Assembly (NCBI GenBank): GCA_040218735.1
Contig: JAVJQW010000022.1
Location: forward strand, 128,001-192,000
Origin: Deltaproteobacteria bacterium
GTDB lineage: Bacteria > Myxococcota > Kuafuiibacteriia > Kuafuiibacteriales > Kuafuiibacteriaceae
Length of the DNA stretch: 64,000 nt
Reading direction: 5' to 3'
Both the position numbers and the translations under genes were made by a program. The notes under the pieces were generated by a model. The model searched no databases. It was not told the DNA's origin and saw only the letters and a program-made list of their open reading frames with translations. This document shows, piece after piece, positions 55,417 to 64,000 of the stretch. Positions within the stretch are counted from its first letter, which is position 1. Each line of letters opens with the position of its first letter.

Positions 55417-56054
55417 GCACGTACCGCTCGGCGCTGCTCGCGGGAGCGGAGGCGATGGGGTTGGCGATCTCGGACGAGGTCGCGGACGGGCTGGCGGTGC
55501 ACCACGCGCTCGTCGAGAAGTGGGCGAAGAAGATCAACCTGACGACCGTGGTCGAGCCGACGCGGGCGGCGTCGGTGCACGGGTTGGACTCGCTGCTGTT
55601 CGCGGAGCTGGTGGAGGACGACGGGGGTGTCACGGTGGATGTGGGATCCGGCGGCGGGTTCCCGGGGATCGCGGTGGCGTTGATGCGGCCTTCGCTTTCA
55701 CTGGTGTTGCTGGAGCCGATTCGGAAGCGTGCTTCTTTTCTGCGCACGGTGTTGGCGGAGCTGGGGCTGAAGCAGGTGCGCGTGGTGGAGGGGAAGCTGG
55801 AAGCGGCGCCTTTGCCGGGGCGTATCGCGTGGCCGGTGGACCGGATCGTGTCGCGGGCGACGATCCCGCCGGTGGAGCTGGCGACGCGGGCGGTGAAGCA
55901 CTTGCGGCCGGGTGGGGTGCTGGTGTTGTCGGGGGGGGCGGGGGCGCCTTCGGTGGAGGCGTTGGCGGCGTCGGGGTTGGTGCACGAGGAGCGGCGTAGG
56001 TATGCGCTGCCGGGTGGCGAAGGGCGGGTGCTCGATCGGCTCCGGGCGCAGTAA
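55413..56054 (+). CDS. rsmG: 16S rRNA m7G527 methyltransferase RsmG (GidB)
   Basis: W.KKINLT, HGLDSL, DVGSGGGFPGI, LLEPIRKRASFL, VSRA. Confidence 0.92.
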   Translation: MSTYRSALLAGAEAMGLAISDEVADGLAVHHALVEKWAKKINLTTVVEPTRAASVHGLDSLLFAELVEDDGGVTVDVGSGGGFPGIAVALMRPSLSLVLLEPIRKRASFLRTVLAELGLKQVRVVEGKLEAAPLPGRIAWPVDRIVSRATIPPVELATRAVKHLRPGGVLVLSGGAGAPSVEALAASGLVHEERRRYALPGGEGRVLDRLRAQ

Positions 56055-56071
56055 TTGGGTGAGTCGGAACC

Positions 56072-57127
56072 TCATTCTCCGTCGTCTCGAGGAGAACGTC
56101 GGGCTTGAACGCCAACGATCGCGTCCTCGCTACGGCTCGTTCGGAGGGGCTGGGTCGTGAGGATCGCTCCGTCTTCAGTCGTTTCACACCGAACGACCGC
56201 GCTCCCATTTTCTGCCGAGCGGCCAATGAGCTCGTACCCATTCTCGTGACTGAGAACATCTGCCCGCTGGAGTGGGCAGTTCGCTCGCTCAACTCGGGAG
56301 GTGATCTCGCCGGTCGAGATATCGATGACGAACAGAGACTGCGGACTCCATACCCAGGCGATGCGATCGTCCGAGGCGACGGCAACGAAATGCACGTCCT
56401 CGGAGAACGAGATGATCTCTCGGGCCCGTATCTCGTCGTTCTGGACCTCGAGCACCTGAACCCCCGGGCGGTTCGAGAGCGGGACCAGGATGCGGCTGGA
56501 CCCCATCGACGGCATTCCGAGCCGATCGTCGGTCGTCCACGCGTCCAACCGCCGCCATTCGGTCCCCGAGCGCCAGAGCTCGACTCGGCCAAACGCCGAG
56601 CCGACCAGGACATCTCTGCCCACCTGAGGTGTCTGCAGGAAGTCCGGCCCGGTGAGCATGACACCGGTGTCGAAGACCTCGTCCCGAGCCTGGATGAGCG
56701 AGCGACCGCTGACCTCGTAGGTGCGCACGCGCTGACCGAACGTGGAGATGACCAGGGGAGATCCGCTTGCATCGACGGTACACGCCTCGATGTCGATGTC
56801 CTCGATCGGCGCACTCACGCTCGTGAGCGTTGCGGTCGATGCTTCGAACACACGAACGCGGCGGTCCTTGGCGTACGTACACGTGAACTCGCCTCGCAGT
56901 CCGAGCCCCCACCGCTCGAGCGCCCGGTTTGTGTTGGACGCGAACAGCCGGCGCCCAGCGTCAGCGGCGCCATCACGTCCGAGCGCAACCAGCTCGATGT
57001 CGGAGTCGGTCCAGCGGACCGCGACGAGCGCCTCGTCGCGACCGGAGGCCGCGTCGCCGGTACACGCGACCATCGACAGTCCGAGGGCGACGAGGCCGCC
57101 GCGGAGGCGTCTACCGTCCGTGCACAA
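56072..57127 (-). CDS. Hypothetical lipoprotein, probably beta-rich
   Basis: Lipobox MVAC; weaker host codon bias; no family recognised. Confidence 0.55.
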   Translation of the reverse strand: MCTDGRRLRGGLVALGLSMVACTGDAASGRDEALVAVRWTDSDIELVALGRDGAADAGRRLFASNTNRALERWGLGLRGEFTCTYAKDRRVRVFEASTATLTSVSAPIEDIDIEACTVDASGSPLVISTFGQRVRTYEVSGRSLIQARDEVFDTGVMLTGPDFLQTPQVGRDVLVGSAFGRVELWRSGTEWRRLDAWTTDDRLGMPSMGSSRILVPLSNRPGVQVLEVQNDEIRAREIISFSEDVHFVAVASDDRIAWVWSPQSLFVIDISTGEITSRVERANCPLQRADVLSHENGYELIGRSAENGSAVVRCETTEDGAILTTQPLRTSRSEDAIVGVQARRSPRDDGE

Positions 57128-57252
57128 GGTACTGCCAATTTAGTCGAGCCCACCCCACCGTGTCTCGGACCGGCGTCCTGACGCCGCCGACGCGCGTCGT
57201 GGATCGGCTGCGGTGGGCGTGAGCCGGGGCCTCGCCGTGGTATCTTCGTTTC

Positions 57253-57468
57253 GTGGAAGCCGACGCTCGCGAGCGCCGGGCGATAGCCCAGCGCGAGGCC
57301 AACGCGCGGGCCGCCGCCCGCGGTGAGCCGCTTCCGTTTCCCAACCCCTGGGACACGCTCGACCCGACGAAGGTCGGCCCCGACGCGACGCCCGAGGAGA
57401 TCACGGCGAGCTACCGGGAGTTTCGTAGGCGATGTCGGACGAAGACGAGGCGGCAGCTTACACTTTAG
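57253..57468 (+). CDS. Small hypothetical protein
   Basis: 71 aa, GC3-rich codons, fills the gap between two minus-strand genes. Confidence 0.5.
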   Translation: MEADARERRAIAQREANARAAARGEPLPFPNPWDTLDPTKVGPDATPEEITASYREFRRRCRTKTRRQLTL

Positions 57469-57636
57469 ACCATGACGACGCTCCGCTTCGCGGACCGTCT
57501 TGGCACAGCCGTCTGACCGACCGCTTCGCGCTCGGACTCCGTCTAGAAGCGTTCGTCGAGGTGCTGCGGCGCCGGTCCCCATCGCCGACCCATTCGAGCT
57601 CCTTCGGAACAAGCTCGCGAACCGTGCGCTCTAGCG

Positions 57637-58515
57637 CTACTGAAGCTCCGCCTTGGTGACGAGCTTCTTGAGAACTTCGTTTCTGTCGTCGGTCATGACG
57701 AGCTCCTCCATGTCGGAACGATCGACGAGCACCAGACGAAGTCCATGCGTTCGCTTGGTCCGAGCCACGTCGTAGACCGGACCTGTGAACCCCCCTGCGG
57801 CAAAGAAGAACCCGAGCGCACCGGGTCGGTCCTGCACTTTCGTGGCGAACCATCCGACCTCAGGGGTACCGACGGACTTGGTCCAGTTCTTCGCCTCGCA
57901 CAGGATGAACGCGGGTTGCTTGGACCAGAACGGGTCCGTCGATTCGTTGCGGATCGCGACGTCGAGCTCTTCGGCCGGCGTGCGCAGGTTGCGCCCCGCT
58001 TCGAGGAGTCCGGGCACCGAGGTCATGAACATCAGAATGAGCTCTTCGAGACGCCGACCCTTCGCGTGCGCCGAGCCCTCCCCGAGCTTCGACCACAGCT
58101 GGCGGATCAGCGCGTCCGCGACGGGGCGACCGCGCTGTTGGGCGCGCACGGTCTCTCGGATCTGGCTCAGCTTTGCGGTCAGCAGCGTCGGGAGTAGCGG
58201 GTCCTTGACGAGGTAGTCGTAGGCGCCGCCGCGGAACGCGCGGCGGATCGAACCTTCGTCCGCGAATCCTGTCACGAGCAGAACCTTGGCCGTGGAGAAG
58301 CGCGCGGACTCCAGAAGATCGACGCCGTCATCGGGACCCGATCCGCCCTGGAGACGTTTGTCGAGCAGGACGACGTCGAAGTCGCCGGTCTCCCACGTCG
58401 CCTTTGCCTCCGCGCTCGACCCGACGATCGTGCCCACGTAACCCTCGTCGGCGAGGATCTCGGCGTACGTCTCCTGCATCGCAGGATCATCTTCCACGAC
58501 CAGCACGTTGAGCAT
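57637..58515 (-). CDS. Response regulator receiver fused to an Mrr-like PD-(D/E)XK restriction endonuclease domain
   Basis: REC: VVEDD, LLD(52), LVTG, YDYLVK. Nuclease: KGRRLEELI, ELDV, CEAKNW, GFFFAAGGFT, LVLVD. ATG 58515 lies 10 bp after the kinase stop. Confidence 0.87.
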   Translation of the reverse strand: MLNVLVVEDDPAMQETYAEILADEGYVGTIVGSSAEAKATWETGDFDVVLLDKRLQGGSGPDDGVDLLESARFSTAKVLLVTGFADEGSIRRAFRGGAYDYLVKDPLLPTLLTAKLSQIRETVRAQQRGRPVADALIRQLWSKLGEGSAHAKGRRLEELILMFMTSVPGLLEAGRNLRTPAEELDVAIRNESTDPFWSKQPAFILCEAKNWTKSVGTPEVGWFATKVQDRPGALGFFFAAGGFTGPVYDVARTKRTHGLRLVLVDRSDMEELVMTDDRNEVLKKLVTKAELQ

Positions 58516-58525
58516 GATGGCTACC

Positions 58526-60070
58526 TTACGCCGTCGGCAGCTCGAGGACGAACCTCGCACCACCCAGGCCTGACTCTTCCACTCTCACGGTTCCGCGGTA
58601 CTCGCCACACACGACCTCTTGAAGGAGTGCGAGCCCCTGCCCGGTGCCGTCCGGCACCGTGCTGAACCCTCGCTCGAACACGCGGGTCCGAAGGTCGGGG
58701 TCGACCCCGCGGCCGTCGTCGTCGACGTGAATCACCACGGTGCTGTCCGTCCGATGGCCGGAGACGACGACCGCGACTCGTCCGTCGGGTCGACCGTGGC
58801 GCCGGGCGTTTCGAATGACCTCGGCGAGCGCGTGTACGAGTCGGAGCCTTTGACCGTGGAGCTCCGTCCCGCGGATGGCGTCGAGCGATCGTCCCACGTC
58901 GGAGCCGTTGGCGATCGCGATCGCGTCCTCGACGACCGCGGCCGCATCGAACGTTTGTGGAGGCGATTGGGAGCTCCCGTAGAGCGCGACGAGATCTTCC
59001 ACGAGCTTGAAGGCGCGCTTCACGCCGGTTCGCGCTCGCGCGAGACGCTGGGTTTCGGTCTCGCTCCAGTCGGGCGCGGAGGTCATCTGGTCGAGCGCGA
59101 AGTTTGCTGGGCCCAGCGCGTTCCTGAGCCCGTGCGCCATTGTCTCGACCACCCATTCGGCCGCCCGTCGCTCGGTTCCGGGCACCACGCTCGAGTCGTC
59201 CATGCGCGCCGCCGACGCCTGTTCGAGGAGTGCGCCAAGCACGGCTTGGGCGGGATGGTCGCCGGAGCGGAGCTCCTCGAGGAGGGCCAGCCCTTCCGGC
59301 CAGACTTCGTACTGTTGGAGTTCGGGGTCTGAACTCGTCCACAGGAGCCCCAACCGTTCGAGTCGAAGAATCGACGTCCAGGCGTACGGAAACCATGGCC
59401 CCTCCTCCGCGTCCAGGCCGCCCTGCCAAACGACCATTTGCGGGGTAGCGATGAGGTGCTCGATGGTCGCTCGACTCAATCGCCACGCGTCCTTTGCGCC
59501 GGTTGACTGCAGAAGCTCGTTCGTGAGGATCCAGCGGACGGCATCGCGTCCGGTGAGTCGCGTCAGAACACGTCCTGCCGCGGTCGTGATACCGCGATCC
59601 ATGATGCCGACCTCTTCCGCGTACCGCAGAACGTCGGTGTCTTCGCTCCACTGGTTGACCGTCTGGAGCGCCGCCTCGATCACGGACCACTGGAGTCCAT
59701 CCGGAGGCTCCACGGGCAGGTTGAGCAGAGCGCGCAGGGCGGCGTCGAGGAACCTACGGGCTTCGGCTGGCGCTTCGACGCCCGCGGCCAGGATGCGCCG
59801 GTATACCCTCCGCAGGACGGCCCGCCTCGGTCCCGGGCCCAGCCACTCACGAACGAGGTTCGCGCGCACCTCACTGGGGTCCGGAGGAACGAAGAGCGCA
59901 TTCATGTGCTCTTCCTGCTGCGCTTGCCGAGCCAAGGCGACTCGCTCTTCGACCCCCGCCGTGACTTGCGCGCGGTAGTCGGCCGGCGGCATCACGTCGT
60001 CGAAGTTCGGCCACGCTGTCGTCCGGTGTAGCCCGTCGCGTAGCGCGGATTGCAGCTCGTCCAGCCACAC
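58526..60070 (-). CDS. Soluble histidine kinase with an unrecognised N-terminal region
   Basis: H-box AHGLRNAL, N-box VIRNA, G1 DDDGRG, F-box VFERGFST, G2 GTGQGL, GGARF; no TM. Start GTG 60070 uncertain; the ORF further upstream is a shadow of the divergent gene. Confidence 0.85.
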   Translation of the reverse strand: MWLDELQSALRDGLHRTTAWPNFDDVMPPADYRAQVTAGVEERVALARQAQQEEHMNALFVPPDPSEVRANLVREWLGPGPRRAVLRRVYRRILAAGVEAPAEARRFLDAALRALLNLPVEPPDGLQWSVIEAALQTVNQWSEDTDVLRYAEEVGIMDRGITTAAGRVLTRLTGRDAVRWILTNELLQSTGAKDAWRLSRATIEHLIATPQMVVWQGGLDAEEGPWFPYAWTSILRLERLGLLWTSSDPELQQYEVWPEGLALLEELRSGDHPAQAVLGALLEQASAARMDDSSVVPGTERRAAEWVVETMAHGLRNALGPANFALDQMTSAPDWSETETQRLARARTGVKRAFKLVEDLVALYGSSQSPPQTFDAAAVVEDAIAIANGSDVGRSLDAIRGTELHGQRLRLVHALAEVIRNARRHGRPDGRVAVVVSGHRTDSTVVIHVDDDGRGVDPDLRTRVFERGFSTVPDGTGQGLALLQEVVCGEYRGTVRVEESGLGGARFVLELPTA

Positions 60071-60178
60071 GAGGCGGACGCTACCGCCGCCTGGGGGGAG
60101 AGGCCAGCACTCGAGCGTAGGACTTGCCCTCGCGGTCAGTTGCGCGCGCGCCGGGTCCGGCGGGATTCTCCCCGGTCT

Positions 60179-60976
60179 ATGGCACTCAAAGATCTCACCA
60201 TCGAATCCATGGTCACCATCGTCGGGGCGTGGGTCGACGCGAAGCGCGACCGGCCGGTGATCGAGAAGTATCCGAAGCTGGCGCCGTTCCTCCCGGACCT
60301 CGGCGGGTTGCAAGATGCCTTGCTCTCGGCGGGGCATCGCGAGCCCTCGAATACGTCGGAGGAGCTCGAGCGCGTGCGCGCGGAGCTCAAGGAGCTGGAC
60401 CGCCGGCACGACGCGGTCGTGCGCGGCATCGACCAGGTGCTCGCGGGGCTGTCGCAGCTCGCGGCGAAGGAGTCCACGGCGTCGACGCTGGAGCGCCTGC
60501 GCGAGACGTTGCTCCCGGAGGGCCGGCGCGTGGTCACGTGGAGTATGCGACGGCAGGGCGGCGCCGCGGAGCGCGCGGCCTCGCGGCTGACGTCGGCCCA
60601 GAAGAAGGCGCTGCGCGAGATGAAGATCCCGGGCGGGACGCTGATGGGCTTCTTCAACGAGCGCGTGACGCTCGCGCGGAAGTTGGTCGAGCTGGACCGC
60701 CAGCGCGTCGCGCTGTTGGCGGCCCTGGACGGCGACGGACCGACGATCGCGAACTACGACGCGACGCTGAAGTTCGTGCGCACCGTGGGGTTGTTCGTGT
60801 CGATCGCCGAGGTGAGCGACATGGAGGACGCGGACCGGGAGCGGTTGCTCGGCGACCTGGAGGCGGCGCTGGAGAACGCGGAGGCGCGGCGGTCGGCGCA
60901 CGTGGAGCGGGCGATCGAGGAGGCGCTGGAGGACCTGGACGCGTCGGCGGAGGCCCAGCCGGCGGGGGATGCTTAG
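60179..60976 (+). CDS. Hypothetical all-helical protein
   Basis: ATG 60179 (MALKDLTIESMV); strong host codon bias; amphipathic helices, LKELDRRHD motif. Confidence 0.8.
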   Translation: MALKDLTIESMVTIVGAWVDAKRDRPVIEKYPKLAPFLPDLGGLQDALLSAGHREPSNTSEELERVRAELKELDRRHDAVVRGIDQVLAGLSQLAAKESTASTLERLRETLLPEGRRVVTWSMRRQGGAAERAASRLTSAQKKALREMKIPGGTLMGFFNERVTLARKLVELDRQRVALLAALDGDGPTIANYDATLKFVRTVGLFVSIAEVSDMEDADRERLLGDLEAALENAEARRSAHVERAIEEALEDLDASAEAQPAGDA

Positions 60977-60982
60977 CCGGGG

Positions 60983-61219
60983 TCAGCCTGCTTGTCGAAG
61001 ATGAAAGACCGGGGCGGTTGCGATCGGCTTCCGTCCGCCGTCCTGAAGTAGTCGTTCGATCCGTTCGACCGTCTCCGGCTCGAACTCCACGTCGCCACAG
61101 CTGTCGCAGACGAGCGCCGGGACGTCGTCGATGACGATCAGCTCGCCACCAGGTCGAACGGTGTGGGGCACGAGCTTGCGGTCGTAGGCTCCCGGACAAT
61201 CGTTGATAGAGCACTTCAT
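60983..61219 (-). CDS. YgiT-type zinc-finger protein (MqsA-like antitoxin family)
   Basis: MKCSINDC...LIVIDDVPALVCDSCGD..FEPETV..IE; ATG 61219. Confidence 0.87.
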   Translation of the reverse strand: MKCSINDCPGAYDRKLVPHTVRPGGELIVIDDVPALVCDSCGDVEFEPETVERIERLLQDGGRKPIATAPVFHLRQAG

Positions 61220-61267: not shown

Positions 61268-61477
61268 ACGACGCGACGCTGTGGTTCGCGCGGCGCCGAG
61301 GTGAGCGAGATGGAGGGCGCGGACCGGGACCGCGTGCTCTCGGACCTGGAGTCGGCGCTGGAGAACGCGGAGGCGCGGCGGTCGGCGCAGGTGGAGCGGG
61401 CGATCGTGTAGGGGTTGGAGGACCTGGAGGCTTCCGTGGAGGCCCAGCCGCCGGATGATCGGTTGGCAGCGCCTTAG

Positions 61478-61645
61478 CGGGTGCCGTGAAAGGGGGTTCG
61501 GAGGCTGTGACAGGCTCAAGATTGGGTTTGAAATCCGATTTGGAGTCTGTCGGAGGGTCGAGATTGGGTTTGAAACCCGATTCGGAGGCTCTCGGAGGGT
61601 CGGATCTGGGTTTGAAACCGGATTTGGAGCCTACGCGGACTCGAC
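61478..61645. repeat. 42-bp tandem repeat, 3 clear copies plus 1 degenerate copy
   Basis: Units start at 61520, 61562 and 61604 (consensus near GATTGGGTTTGAAACCCGATTYGGAGKCTSTCGGAGGGTCGR); degenerate unit at 61478. Confidence 0.9.
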
Positions 61646-62237: not shown

Positions 62238-63998
62238 TCAGACCGCGAGCACCTCGACGACCTCGGCGATGACGCGCAGCTCGTCGGGATCTGCGGAGGT
62301 GAAAGTCAGGGGCTCGAACTCCGGGTTCGCGGGCCGGAGCACGATGCGCTTCGCACCGTCGGATCCCTGCTCTTCCCTGTAGAGCTTGATGGTGTACTGG
62401 CCGCCGGTGTCGGGATCGGTGGGCCCCGCGTGGCGCACGAGGACGGGGCGCTCGGGAGAGGATGGGAGGGAGACGCGGCGGAAGAGGCAGTAGGCTCCGT
62501 CGGGGATGGTGGGCTCCATCGACCGGCCGGTGACCTGGGCGACGAACATGCCCCGTGCGAGGGGCTTGGCTGCGCTCGGGGTCACCCATTCGAGGCTGTC
62601 GTCATCGAGATCGGGGACGTCTTCCTGGAGCTCGCTCCAGGCGGTTGCCGCGATCTCGAACTCGATCAGCGGCACACAGGTACTGTAGCGCTCCTGCGAC
62701 GCGGGCTCGACCCGGCGGAACGGAAGCACCTTCGCGGCGCCACCAGTCGGCTCGGCCTCGTCGAGGAGGTCGAGGGCCGGGAGGCTCTGCACCAGCTTCA
62801 GCGTCTCGAGGCTCACGGTGATCACCCGGAGCAGGAGGGAGAGCGGGTAGCGTGGGTCGCCCATGGTCTCGGTGGCCCAGGCGTTGGCGTCCTTCTCGAT
62901 GCCGCTCGCTTTGTCCGTGGTGACGCTCTGGCACTTCATCACCCACCCTATCGCGGGCTTGCCGTTGACGACGTAGTCATACGCCTCCAGGGGGATGTCG
63001 CGGACGGTGATGAAGTCATTGTAGTGGATAACGGTCTTGTCCTTGCCCTTCCCGAACCGCATCTTCTCGACCCGGTAATGGTTGGCGGTGCGGCTGGCCG
63101 ACTCTTCGACCTTGGCCTTGTACTCGGGCACCTTCTCGTAGCCGACGTGCAGCTCGCCCAGGGTGCGGCCGGCCTTGCTGAAGGCCCAGAAGTCTGCAGC
63201 GGTCCTCACGCGAGGGATGCGCGGAAGCTCCTTGCCAAGGTTGTCGGCGTAGCGAGTGCGGTAATCCGGGGCGTGTAGGATGCCGTAGACGTAATAGAAT
63301 AGGTCTTCCTTGGTGATGGGCTCACCCGGGTAGGCGGACTGGAAGTGGGCGAGGCCGGCGTCGGTGATGCCGTCGCGGCGAGTGGTAGCGGCTGAAGGCT
63401 TGTTTGGGGCGGGGAACATTGCGCCAGCCCCATCAGCTTCCTCCGGACCGGTGTCGGCGGAATCGTAGACGAAAAGCGGGAAGTACTGAGATCCAACCAT
63501 ATCCGTCGCATGCAGGCTCGGGACAACATCTGCCATCATCACCGAGAAGGCGCTTCGCGACTCGCCAGCGGTGACCCCGATGACGCGGTTTGCCACGTCA
63601 ACGCGAGGAAAGAGGCGTGGCATCTGGTAGACCATCTCGTTGAGCTTGCGGTCGAAGTATAGCCAGCGGCGCGAGAAGGGTCGGTACAAGCTCGGCACTA
63701 TACGCATTGCGTCGAAGCGCAGCCGTCCTCCCTTCGCAAATTCGTTCTTAAGGGCTCTCGTCCAGGAGATCTTCGAAGGGTCTGTGTCTATGAAACCTTT
63801 GAGCAGTCCTTTCCGCCCCTTCTTGTGGAGCTCGCGATGGGCGCCATCGAAGCGAGACAGCTCCGCGTTGTAGAACCTGATCATATTGCCCATGTTGTGG
63901 CTGAGGCCGGGTTTCGATGGGTTCGAAGCCCACGCATCGCGATTCGTAACCACGCCTAGCGAGAACATTGAGAAGACGCGGGCCGAGGACTCCTCCTT
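62238..63998 (-). CDS. Type ISP restriction-modification enzyme (C-terminal part; 5' end outside window) fused to an S24 LexA-like peptidase domain
   Basis: LGVVTNRDAW, ISWTRAL, SLYRPF, ITKEDLFYYVYGILH..DYR.RYA.NL.KELPRIP, YDYVVNGKPAI; then VTGRSMEP and YTIK. Frame stays open to the window edge. Confidence 0.9.
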   Translation of the reverse strand, partial: KEESSARVFSMFSLGVVTNRDAWASNPSKPGLSHNMGNMIRFYNAELSRFDGAHRELHKKGRKGLLKGFIDTDPSKISWTRALKNEFAKGGRLRFDAMRIVPSLYRPFSRRWLYFDRKLNEMVYQMPRLFPRVDVANRVIGVTAGESRSAFSVMMADVVPSLHATDMVGSQYFPLFVYDSADTGPEEADGAGAMFPAPNKPSAATTRRDGITDAGLAHFQSAYPGEPITKEDLFYYVYGILHAPDYRTRYADNLGKELPRIPRVRTAADFWAFSKAGRTLGELHVGYEKVPEYKAKVEESASRTANHYRVEKMRFGKGKDKTVIHYNDFITVRDIPLEAYDYVVNGKPAIGWVMKCQSVTTDKASGIEKDANAWATETMGDPRYPLSLLLRVITVSLETLKLVQSLPALDLLDEAEPTGGAAKVLPFRRVEPASQERYSTCVPLIEFEIAATAWSELQEDVPDLDDDSLEWVTPSAAKPLARGMFVAQVTGRSMEPTIPDGAYCLFRRVSLPSSPERPVLVRHAGPTDPDTGGQYTIKLYREEQGSDGAKRIVLRPANPEFEPLTFTSADPDELRVIAEVVEVLAV

Positions 63999-64000
63999 GT

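Follow-up and report, generated by a model that had tools for sequence, protein, structure and literature searches.

A conserved histidine kinase and a predicted receiver–Mrr nuclease regulator as an apparently undescribed two-gene pair of Myxococcota

Phosphorelays that end in a nuclease or another effector are in print for two bacterial defense systems, Detocs and Type 1F Shedu. The Detocs preprint describes a system of three genes, which encode DtcA, a kinase drawn with tetratricopeptide repeats (TPRs) and with its histidine at position 645, DtcB, a stand-alone receiver that acts as a buffer, and DtcC, a receiver joined to an effector. In the Vibrio system tested there, both the phospho-histidine and the phospho-aspartate were needed, as the H-to-A and D-to-A mutants abolished defense. 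The text gives the effector as PNP in about 80% of Detocs operons, while about 20% carry others, including restriction endonuclease (REase; PF18742, DpnII-MboI), TOPRIM and membrane effectors. Type 1F Shedu, as presented in its preprint, joins a receiver to a DUF4263/SduA_C nuclease, often beside a histidine kinase; 39 instances are reported, none of them tested, and the authors propose activation through phosphorylation-induced dimerization. Here we describe a histidine kinase (HK) gene and a response regulator (RR) gene which lie side by side in a 64,000-nucleotide stretch of DNA from a Deltaproteobacteria bacterium of the phylum Myxococcota (contig JAVJQW010000022.1, positions 128,001 to 192,000; the whole stretch is called the window), and in which RR joins a receiver to a predicted Mrr-type nuclease domain.

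The pair resembles Detocs in that a histidine kinase is combined with a response regulator that has a cell-damaging effector in place of a DNA-binding output. It differs from Detocs in gene content, in the kinase and in the effector. No receiver-only gene adjoins the pair in the window, and none was found by Pfam within three genes of it in 16 related loci. HK has 514 amino acids, and no TPR was detected in it or in the 46 kinase N-terminal domains scanned at E ≤ 1. The effector belongs to Mrr_cat (PF04471), whereas PF18742 is without a match in the genome from which the window comes. The likeness to Type 1F Shedu consists in a protein that has a receiver ahead of a PD-(D/E)XK-type nuclease, and in the adjoining kinase gene. 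However, the nuclease is Mrr_cat, where Shedu has SduA_C. PF14082 gave no match in the genome when the threshold was relaxed to E ≤ 10 and is absent from the Pfam matches at E ≤ 0.1, and the only part of RR to which the PADLOC SduA model PDLC00405 aligns is residues 3-63, in the receiver.

With the Mrr-family type IV restriction enzymes RR shares a catalytic domain of the same Pfam family, while the N-terminal winged-helix DNA-recognition domain of E. coli Mrr is replaced in RR by the receiver. A resemblance to STAND/NLR-like systems is seen at L063:4782-8486 in a Blastocatellia bin, where a 1235-amino-acid protein with NACHT and HEAT repeats, an NLR-like architecture, ends in a close relative of the RR nuclease domain as its C-terminal effector. 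Avs and short-Argonaute systems use Mrr-like effectors. Unlike in Mrr and in the STAND/NLR-like effectors, the control in RR would be by a phosphorelay, and not by recognition of modified DNA or by NTPase oligomerization. From regulators of the NtrC1/DctD type RR differs in its output, which is a predicted nuclease and not a sigma-54 AAA+ ATPase.

No earlier description of a receiver–Mrr regulator was found in the literature, a search that extended to the Detocs and Shedu preprints but not to their supplementary variant tables. The passages searched in papers on the discovery of defense systems and in a myxophage preprint contained nothing on it either. PADLOC 2.0.0 gave no Dtc-named match, although it is uncertain whether Dtc models are included there. 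DefenseFinder has subtypes of the ‘Detocs_REase’ type. An earlier note on this DNA, made from its letters, had known of no characterized defense system with this two-gene architecture. As to the design this could not be upheld, because Detocs with REase effectors and Type 1F Shedu are already in print. Since the phosphorelay–nuclease design has thus been published for two other nuclease families, the pair represents a variant rather than a new principle. By the features compared here, the HK–RR family would belong to neither Detocs nor Type 1F Shedu, and it is apparently undescribed.

Domains of the regulator and the kinase

The RR gene (57637..58515, minus strand) encodes 292 amino acids, in which a receiver, a helical linker and an Mrr_cat domain follow one another. 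The receiver (58198..58506, minus strand; residues 4-106) matches the Pfam family Response_reg over residues 4-106 with 59.5 bits (cut-off 30.2), and it has the full set of phosphorylation residues that the earlier note had read from it (E8-D9, D52, T82 and K104), together with Y101. The linker (58072..58197, minus strand; residues 107-148) forms helices 108-127 and 132-142 in the secondary structure of the AlphaFold 2 model, and the profile of the RR family matches the receiver-plus-linker structure of NtrC1 (1zy2) over profile positions 6-156. By analogy the linker may set the geometry of the dimer in RR. A homodimer prediction of RR gave a median score of 0.38, against a mark of 0.42 and controls of 0.00, and was not used as evidence.

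The nuclease domain (57640..58071, minus strand; residues 149-292) matches Mrr_cat over residues 178-272 with 29.8 bits (cut-off 21), and PF04471 was also precomputed on 17 of 19 database homologues of RR. The motifs LEE (156-158), ELD (183-185), EAK (207-209) and GFT (242-244), which the earlier note had called intact, are all present. The alignment of 61 RR homologues, 33%–72% identical to the protein in the window, showed that four receiver residues (D9, D52, T82, K104) and four nuclease residues (E157, D185, E207, K209) are invariant in every one of them. In the AlphaFold 2 model of RR, which has a mean predicted local distance difference test (pLDDT) score of 88.9 and a predicted template-modeling score of 0.73, the C-terminal part is folded as an alpha-beta-beta-beta-alpha-beta core with E157 on helix 149-165, D185 on strand 183-190, and E207 and K209 on strand 203-209. 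This placement is the arrangement expected of a PD-(D/E)XK site, and the topology of the model agrees with the assignment of the domain to this fold in the earlier note. The nuclease domain alone gave only chance-level matches when compared with PDB sequences. Taken together, the output of RR is predicted to be an Mrr-type PD-(D/E)XK nuclease domain with intact catalytic residues.

Fold matches of the whole RR in BFVD included one RecB-family nuclease, given without aligned ranges. The best viral match in that database was A0A8S5LY51, a 298-amino-acid phage protein named ‘response regulator protein’, which aligned over 301 columns with E 9.6e-7 and a template-modeling score of 0.35, and which is possibly a phage-borne receiver–nuclease of similar build. 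In one bin (L044:4662-7163) the RR reading frame continues for 834 amino acids past the match to residues 3-273, which reflects either a frameshift or a C-terminal fusion.

The HK gene (58526..60070, minus strand) encodes 514 amino acids, and it starts with a GTG codon that lines up with the methionine starts of its homologues and ends with a stop codon at 58526-58528. The dimerization and histidine phosphotransfer (DHp) domain and the catalytic ATP-binding (CA) core occupy 58529..59185 (minus strand; residues 296-514), with H313 as the phospho-acceptor. HATPase_c is matched over residues 407-513 with 66.7 bits (cut-off 26.4), while the match to HisKA, with 14.4 versus 26.9 bits, is under the cut-off. 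The profile built from 47 HK homologues matches solved DHp plus CA kinase cores (ZraS, E 1e-34), and the phospho-histidine, N, G1 and G2 boxes are kept across the 47 kinases. From their conserved residues, both HK, a kinase of the HisKA type, and RR look active. The highest Kyte-Doolittle mean over 19 residues is 0.87 in HK, which indicates that it has no membrane segment and is cytoplasmic, and which agrees with the description of the kinase as soluble in the earlier note.

The N-terminal sensor region of HK (59186..60070, minus strand; residues 1-295) belongs to no named family. No Pfam family was common to more than 3 of 46 members, a word-based search with this domain returned 3 relatives only, and the ESM Atlas gave no usable match. 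The search against PDB sequences yielded only two weak matches, both to winged-helix proteins, which were the PadR-like 4ejo (E 0.013) and the MarR structure 2rdp (E 0.016). Fold searches with HK were dominated by its other half, as the PDB search was filled by the kinase core and the BFVD search listed kinases only. In the HK model the sensor block has pLDDT values of 77-97, which go down to 73 and 67 around the 218-221 loop, and its first part (2-140) is a helical bundle, after which come helices and two beta-hairpins (211-215; 243-248 with 251-256) that could be winged-helix modules. The profile of the domain found 365 clusters at 50% identity (E ≤ 1e-3), 200 of them with E ≤ 1e-30. Among the best 150 clusters almost all proteins have 480-560 amino acids with the domain at residues 1-300, and this near-uniform length and N-terminal position suggest that the domain is known only in this kinase.

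The sensor region is also the fastest-evolving part of the system. The mean pairwise identity is 27% for this region, compared with 39% for the kinase core, 50% for the receiver and 43% for the nuclease. It has the highest nonsynonymous divergence (dN) in 9 of 10 close pairs, with ratios of nonsynonymous to synonymous divergence (dN/dS) between 0.11 and 1.0. In two close pairs the synonymous divergence (dS) of the sensor reaches about three times the value for the remaining operon, a sign that sensors may be exchanged by recombination. The kinase of locus L017 was excluded from the alignment of this domain and from the identity correlation described below, because its N-terminal half is mis-framed.

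Pairing, distribution and selection of the two genes

The two genes are separated by a spacer of 10 nucleotides (58516..58525, minus strand). Direct reading of the sequence confirmed the coordinates and the anatomy proposed in the earlier note. The TAA of HK is followed by these 10 nucleotides and then by the ATG of RR, with a Shine-Dalgarno-like AAGG overlapping the HK stop codon. The genome carries a single copy of the pair. A scan of one genome per species returned 119 relatives of RR, the top 80 of which gave 79 loci, and 3 further near-full-length loci were taken from metagenome contigs. Among all these loci 60 have a near-full-length RR. A homologue of HK ends no more than 150 nucleotides upstream on the same strand in 56 of these 60 loci. 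The remaining loci comprise three without a kinase and one without upstream sequence, and hence 56 of the 59 informative loci are paired with the same kinase, as the earlier note had supposed. The HK and RR genes overlap by 4 nucleotides in 46 of 55 pairs, and the pair in the window has the 10-nucleotide spacer instead. The matrices of pairwise identity for HK and for RR are correlated with r = 0.92, a value that none of 2000 permutations in a Mantel test reached, which suggests that the partners were inherited or moved together. These comparisons indicate that HK and RR form a genuine two-component pair in a conserved operon.

The named RR matches in the scan of one genome per species are almost all from Myxococcota, with three bins labeled otherwise. 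The carriers include Sorangium, Polyangium, Chondromyces, Corallococcus, Pyxidicoccus, Archangium, Hyalangium, Cystobacter, Haliangium, Nannocystis, Enhygromyxa and Kofleriaceae. Within the phylum the gene is patchy. In an even sample of 401 genomes full-length RR (threshold E ≤ 1.2e-43) was present in 29; one genome of this sample is unpublished and has no full-length match. It was found in 3 of 20 genomes of the family to which the window belongs, and it was not found in the one other genome of the genus, which is only 75% complete. Patchiness extends into single genera, for example with 5 of 12 and 6 of 22 genomes as carriers. The RR tree consists of several well-supported clades, each of which mixes families, while Archangium, Polyangium and even single bins are split over two or three of them.

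The flanks of the pair are unrelated from locus to locus. The GC content at third codon positions (GC3) is lower in HK than the median of the flanking genes in 37 of 38 loci (0.78 versus 0.88), and the same holds for RR in 29 of 38 loci; both counts are descriptive only, as related loci are not independent. Contigs of four DNA runs were compared with the window. In a related strain, assembled as contigs of two public runs, the pair is kept with 96.6% identity, while the 1.6 kb between the pair and gidB are replaced by 57 other letters. Patchiness, mixed clades, atypical GC3, changing flanks and the swap in the related strain together suggest that the HK–RR pair is an accessory module, mobile within the phylum, and not a core gene. 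As judged from the divergence of its copies, the pair is also under purifying selection.

Surroundings of the pair

Upstream of HK lies a divergent intergenic region of 108 bp (60071..60178), which is presumed to hold the promoter. A scan with the sigma-70 consensus found no promoter in it, but this consensus says little for a myxobacterium. One terminator-like site, at chance level, was found inside the RR gene. On the far side of the intergenic region an open reading frame (ORF) of 265 amino acids (60179..60976, plus strand; GC3 0.95) stands head-to-head with HK. It has no match in Pfam or PADLOC, and it was not seen beside the pair at other loci, except for one weak match in L049. The genome contains two paralogues of this ORF, with 73% and 67% identity, at G000:C29:4111-4941 (L163) and G000:C20:274786-275571 (L164). 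One paralogue is head-to-head, at a distance of 78 bp, with an operon of cas3, a 720-amino-acid gene and Cas_GSU0053, while the other is convergent with a UvrD-like helicase gene and an unknown gene. The 265-amino-acid ORF is possibly a regulator or companion of defense loci.

The earlier note had placed the pair in an accessory island with a type ISP restriction-modification (RM) gene, toxin–antitoxin debris and remnants of insertion sequences (IS). The type ISP RM gene, 2 kb from the pair, was confirmed at full length. Its 3′ part lies in the window at 62238..64000 (minus strand), and the gene extends past the window end to coordinate 67706 (62238-67706; L001:2238-7706), with 1822 amino acids in all. 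The protein matches Mrr_cat_2, ResIII, ISP_coupler, N6_Mtase, Type_ISP_C and Peptidase_S24 in Pfam, and the PADLOC model REase_MTase_IIG covers its residues 7-1649 with 2289.7 bits. The Peptidase_S24 (LexA-like) domain is an extra C-terminal part at residues 1679-1817 (E 4.9e-8), outside the PADLOC model, and a type ISP enzyme with a self-cleaving tail of this kind seems unusual. The coverage of this gene was thin in the two runs of the related strain and no contig spans it, so that no claim was drawn from them.

The toxin–antitoxin debris of the earlier note comes down to a zinc-ribbon ORF of 78 amino acids (60983-61219, minus strand) with a weak match, under the cut-off, to the putative antitoxin YokU (E 1e-3), next to which no partner toxin gene was seen. 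Between this ORF and the type ISP gene, at 61295-61459 and 61512-61629, a C-terminal fragment of 55 amino acids from the 265-amino-acid ORF is duplicated with 75% identity, and a tandem repeat with 2.8 copies of a 42-bp unit comes after it. This stretch yielded no transposase and no IS remnant, contrary to the earlier note. The 1.6 kb that the related strain lacks, at 55994-57627 (L161:1994-3627), hold a beta-propeller-like ORF of 351 amino acids (56072-57127, minus strand) and two small overlapping ORFs (57253-57659, plus strand).

Possible role and direction of the switch

We propose that the HK–RR pair is a self-contained two-gene signaling module which ends in DNA cleavage and has an accessory conflict or anti-phage role in Myxococcota, a proposal that we regard as evenly balanced between right and wrong. 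In such a module an intracellular cue would be recognized by the fast-evolving N-terminal domain of HK, with its helical bundle and winged-helix-like modules, and HK would then autophosphorylate on H313 and pass the phosphate to D52 of RR. Phosphorylation would rearrange the receiver and linker dimers, so that two or more nuclease domains meet and cut DNA, while unphosphorylated RR would be harmless. The phosphatase activity of HK itself would probably give the safety that a separate buffer receiver gives in Detocs. The pair would thus serve as an anti-phage or conflict module, through restriction or abortive infection. A more specific version, which we put forward only tentatively, is a Myxococcota-centered and independently evolved immune module, in which the hypervariable, winged-helix-containing sensor detects a phage or foreign-DNA cue directly and phosphorylation activates the Mrr-type nuclease, with two genes and no buffer receiver. 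If this is true, immunity through a phosphorelay-gated nuclease would have arisen separately a third time, in addition to Detocs and Type 1F Shedu.

A defense role is favored by the accessory pattern, the diversifying sensor, the nearby type ISP RM gene, the effector-type relatives of the nuclease and the cas-linked paralogue of the neighboring ORF, and its probability is judged to be about one half. The relatives of the RR nuclease domain that have no receiver are fused to NACHT and HEAT, to HEPN_Toprim_N, to AP2 or to HSDR_N_2. A stand-alone relative is located on an Agrobacterium plasmid, among NTase-HEPN genes, IS and a pair of DUF1837 and helicase genes. A search for ‘longer’ proteins that share the nuclease domain found none, which is weak evidence.

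The direction of the switch is addressed by loci in which the kinase was lost. Three Archangium bins have orthologous loci, of which one keeps the pair, while in the other two exactly the HK gene is replaced. In one of them (L012:798-7970) its place is taken by 7 kb with an IS (DDE transposase) and DUF6310 and DUF5953 genes, and in the other (L020:6837-7966) by 1.1 kb with a lower-GC ORF of 292 amino acids, which is on the opposite strand and of no family. The HK site in Archangium behaves as a hot spot for accessory genes. RR is intact in both kinase-less loci, with all key residues. All six comparisons of RR gave dN/dS values of 0.08-0.11, and the comparison of the two kinase-less copies with each other gave 0.106. 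A nuclease that fires when unphosphorylated should not survive the loss of its kinase, and hence phosphorylation most likely switches the RR nuclease on. The opposite logic, of a guard or toxin–antitoxin-like kind, would have HK keep RR phosphorylated and silent until the loss of kinase activity or of ATP in infection frees the nuclease. Regulators of the NtrC1 type have a receiver that represses the output domain, and their receiver and linker are the closest solved relatives of those in RR; the missing buffer receiver would also require some other safety. Such logic is nonetheless improbable, because the two natural loci that lost HK retain an intact RR under purifying selection, a state that cells should not survive if unphosphorylated RR cut DNA. 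Phosphotransfer was moreover needed for defense in the one tested analogue, Detocs.

Several results weigh against an active, phosphorylation-triggered defense module. The residue after the phospho-histidine is G in HK of the window and in its nearest relative (L002), while it is E in 44 of 47 homologues, which suggests that the autokinase rate of this HK may be low. The kinase-less loci are metagenome bins, in which RR may use another kinase or be freshly orphaned. Fold searches of the PDB with the whole RR returned lists filled by the receiver domain, and the nuclease fold was compared with viral models only, as the BFVD matches of RR include, among the top 36, six viral proteins named restriction endonuclease or Mrr (E 3.9e-5 to 2e-3) without aligned ranges. 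Neither 72,556 plasmids nor 50,697 phage records yielded a full-length copy, and no RNA was listed for the 2.4-kb stretch of the pair. PADLOC (2023), a check suggested in the earlier note, called no defense system for either HK or RR. The association with defense islands, a point which that note had also raised, is weak. Of 36 related loci just 3 had a true defense system within three genes on either side, namely L024 (Septu), L040 (NsnAB) and L017 (type III RM), and most flanks are housekeeping or metabolic genes. The second PADLOC run was made without loci L009, L016, L029, L073 and L082. PADLOC matches set aside as domain-level and not as defense systems were PD-T4-6 (Ser/Thr kinases in L004, L030, L055 and L059), ZorB (OmpA domains), RtcR (sigma-54 activators) and SspA/DndA. 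These ordinary neighborhoods would also suit the same molecules in a housekeeping or developmental role, with HK reading a physiological cue and the cell's own or incoming DNA as the target, in developmental cell death, kin conflict, or DNA turnover or repair. The near confinement of the family to Myxococcota and the strong purifying selection point the same way, as do the DUF6310 and DUF5953 genes and the IS in the DNA that replaces the L012 kinase. These two families, we presume, resemble myxobacterial toxin/immunity cassettes. We consider such a role rather unlikely, since a core developmental function would not be lacking in about 93% of the genomes sampled from the phylum and in most species of the carrier genera, and since the atypical composition, paralogous clades, hypervariable sensor and effector-type nuclease relatives fit conflict systems better than housekeeping. 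The flanking genes, often ordinary, could further mean that Mrr_cat is a non-cutting DNA-binding output and the pair an ordinary transcriptional two-component system. In some cases a PD-(D/E)XK fold serves to bind DNA and has no catalytic role. This is highly improbable, because the four catalytic residues of the nuclease are invariant down to 33% identity, no conserved neighboring target gene accompanies the pair, and no helix-turn-helix was detected in RR by Pfam.

If the HK–RR pair is indeed a phosphorelay-gated nuclease module, nucleases would have come under phosphorelay control on at least three separate occasions, and two-component signaling would be a general way of setting off immune effectors and not just a Detocs curiosity. 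As a minimal two-gene version with a cytoplasmic sensor, the pair could reveal what such kinases sense, and a nuclease that responds to phosphorylation at one site could be a useful tool. It sits in a phylum whose phage defense is little studied, and if its role is not defense, it would still be of interest that social bacteria turn a kinase-gated nuclease on their own DNA.

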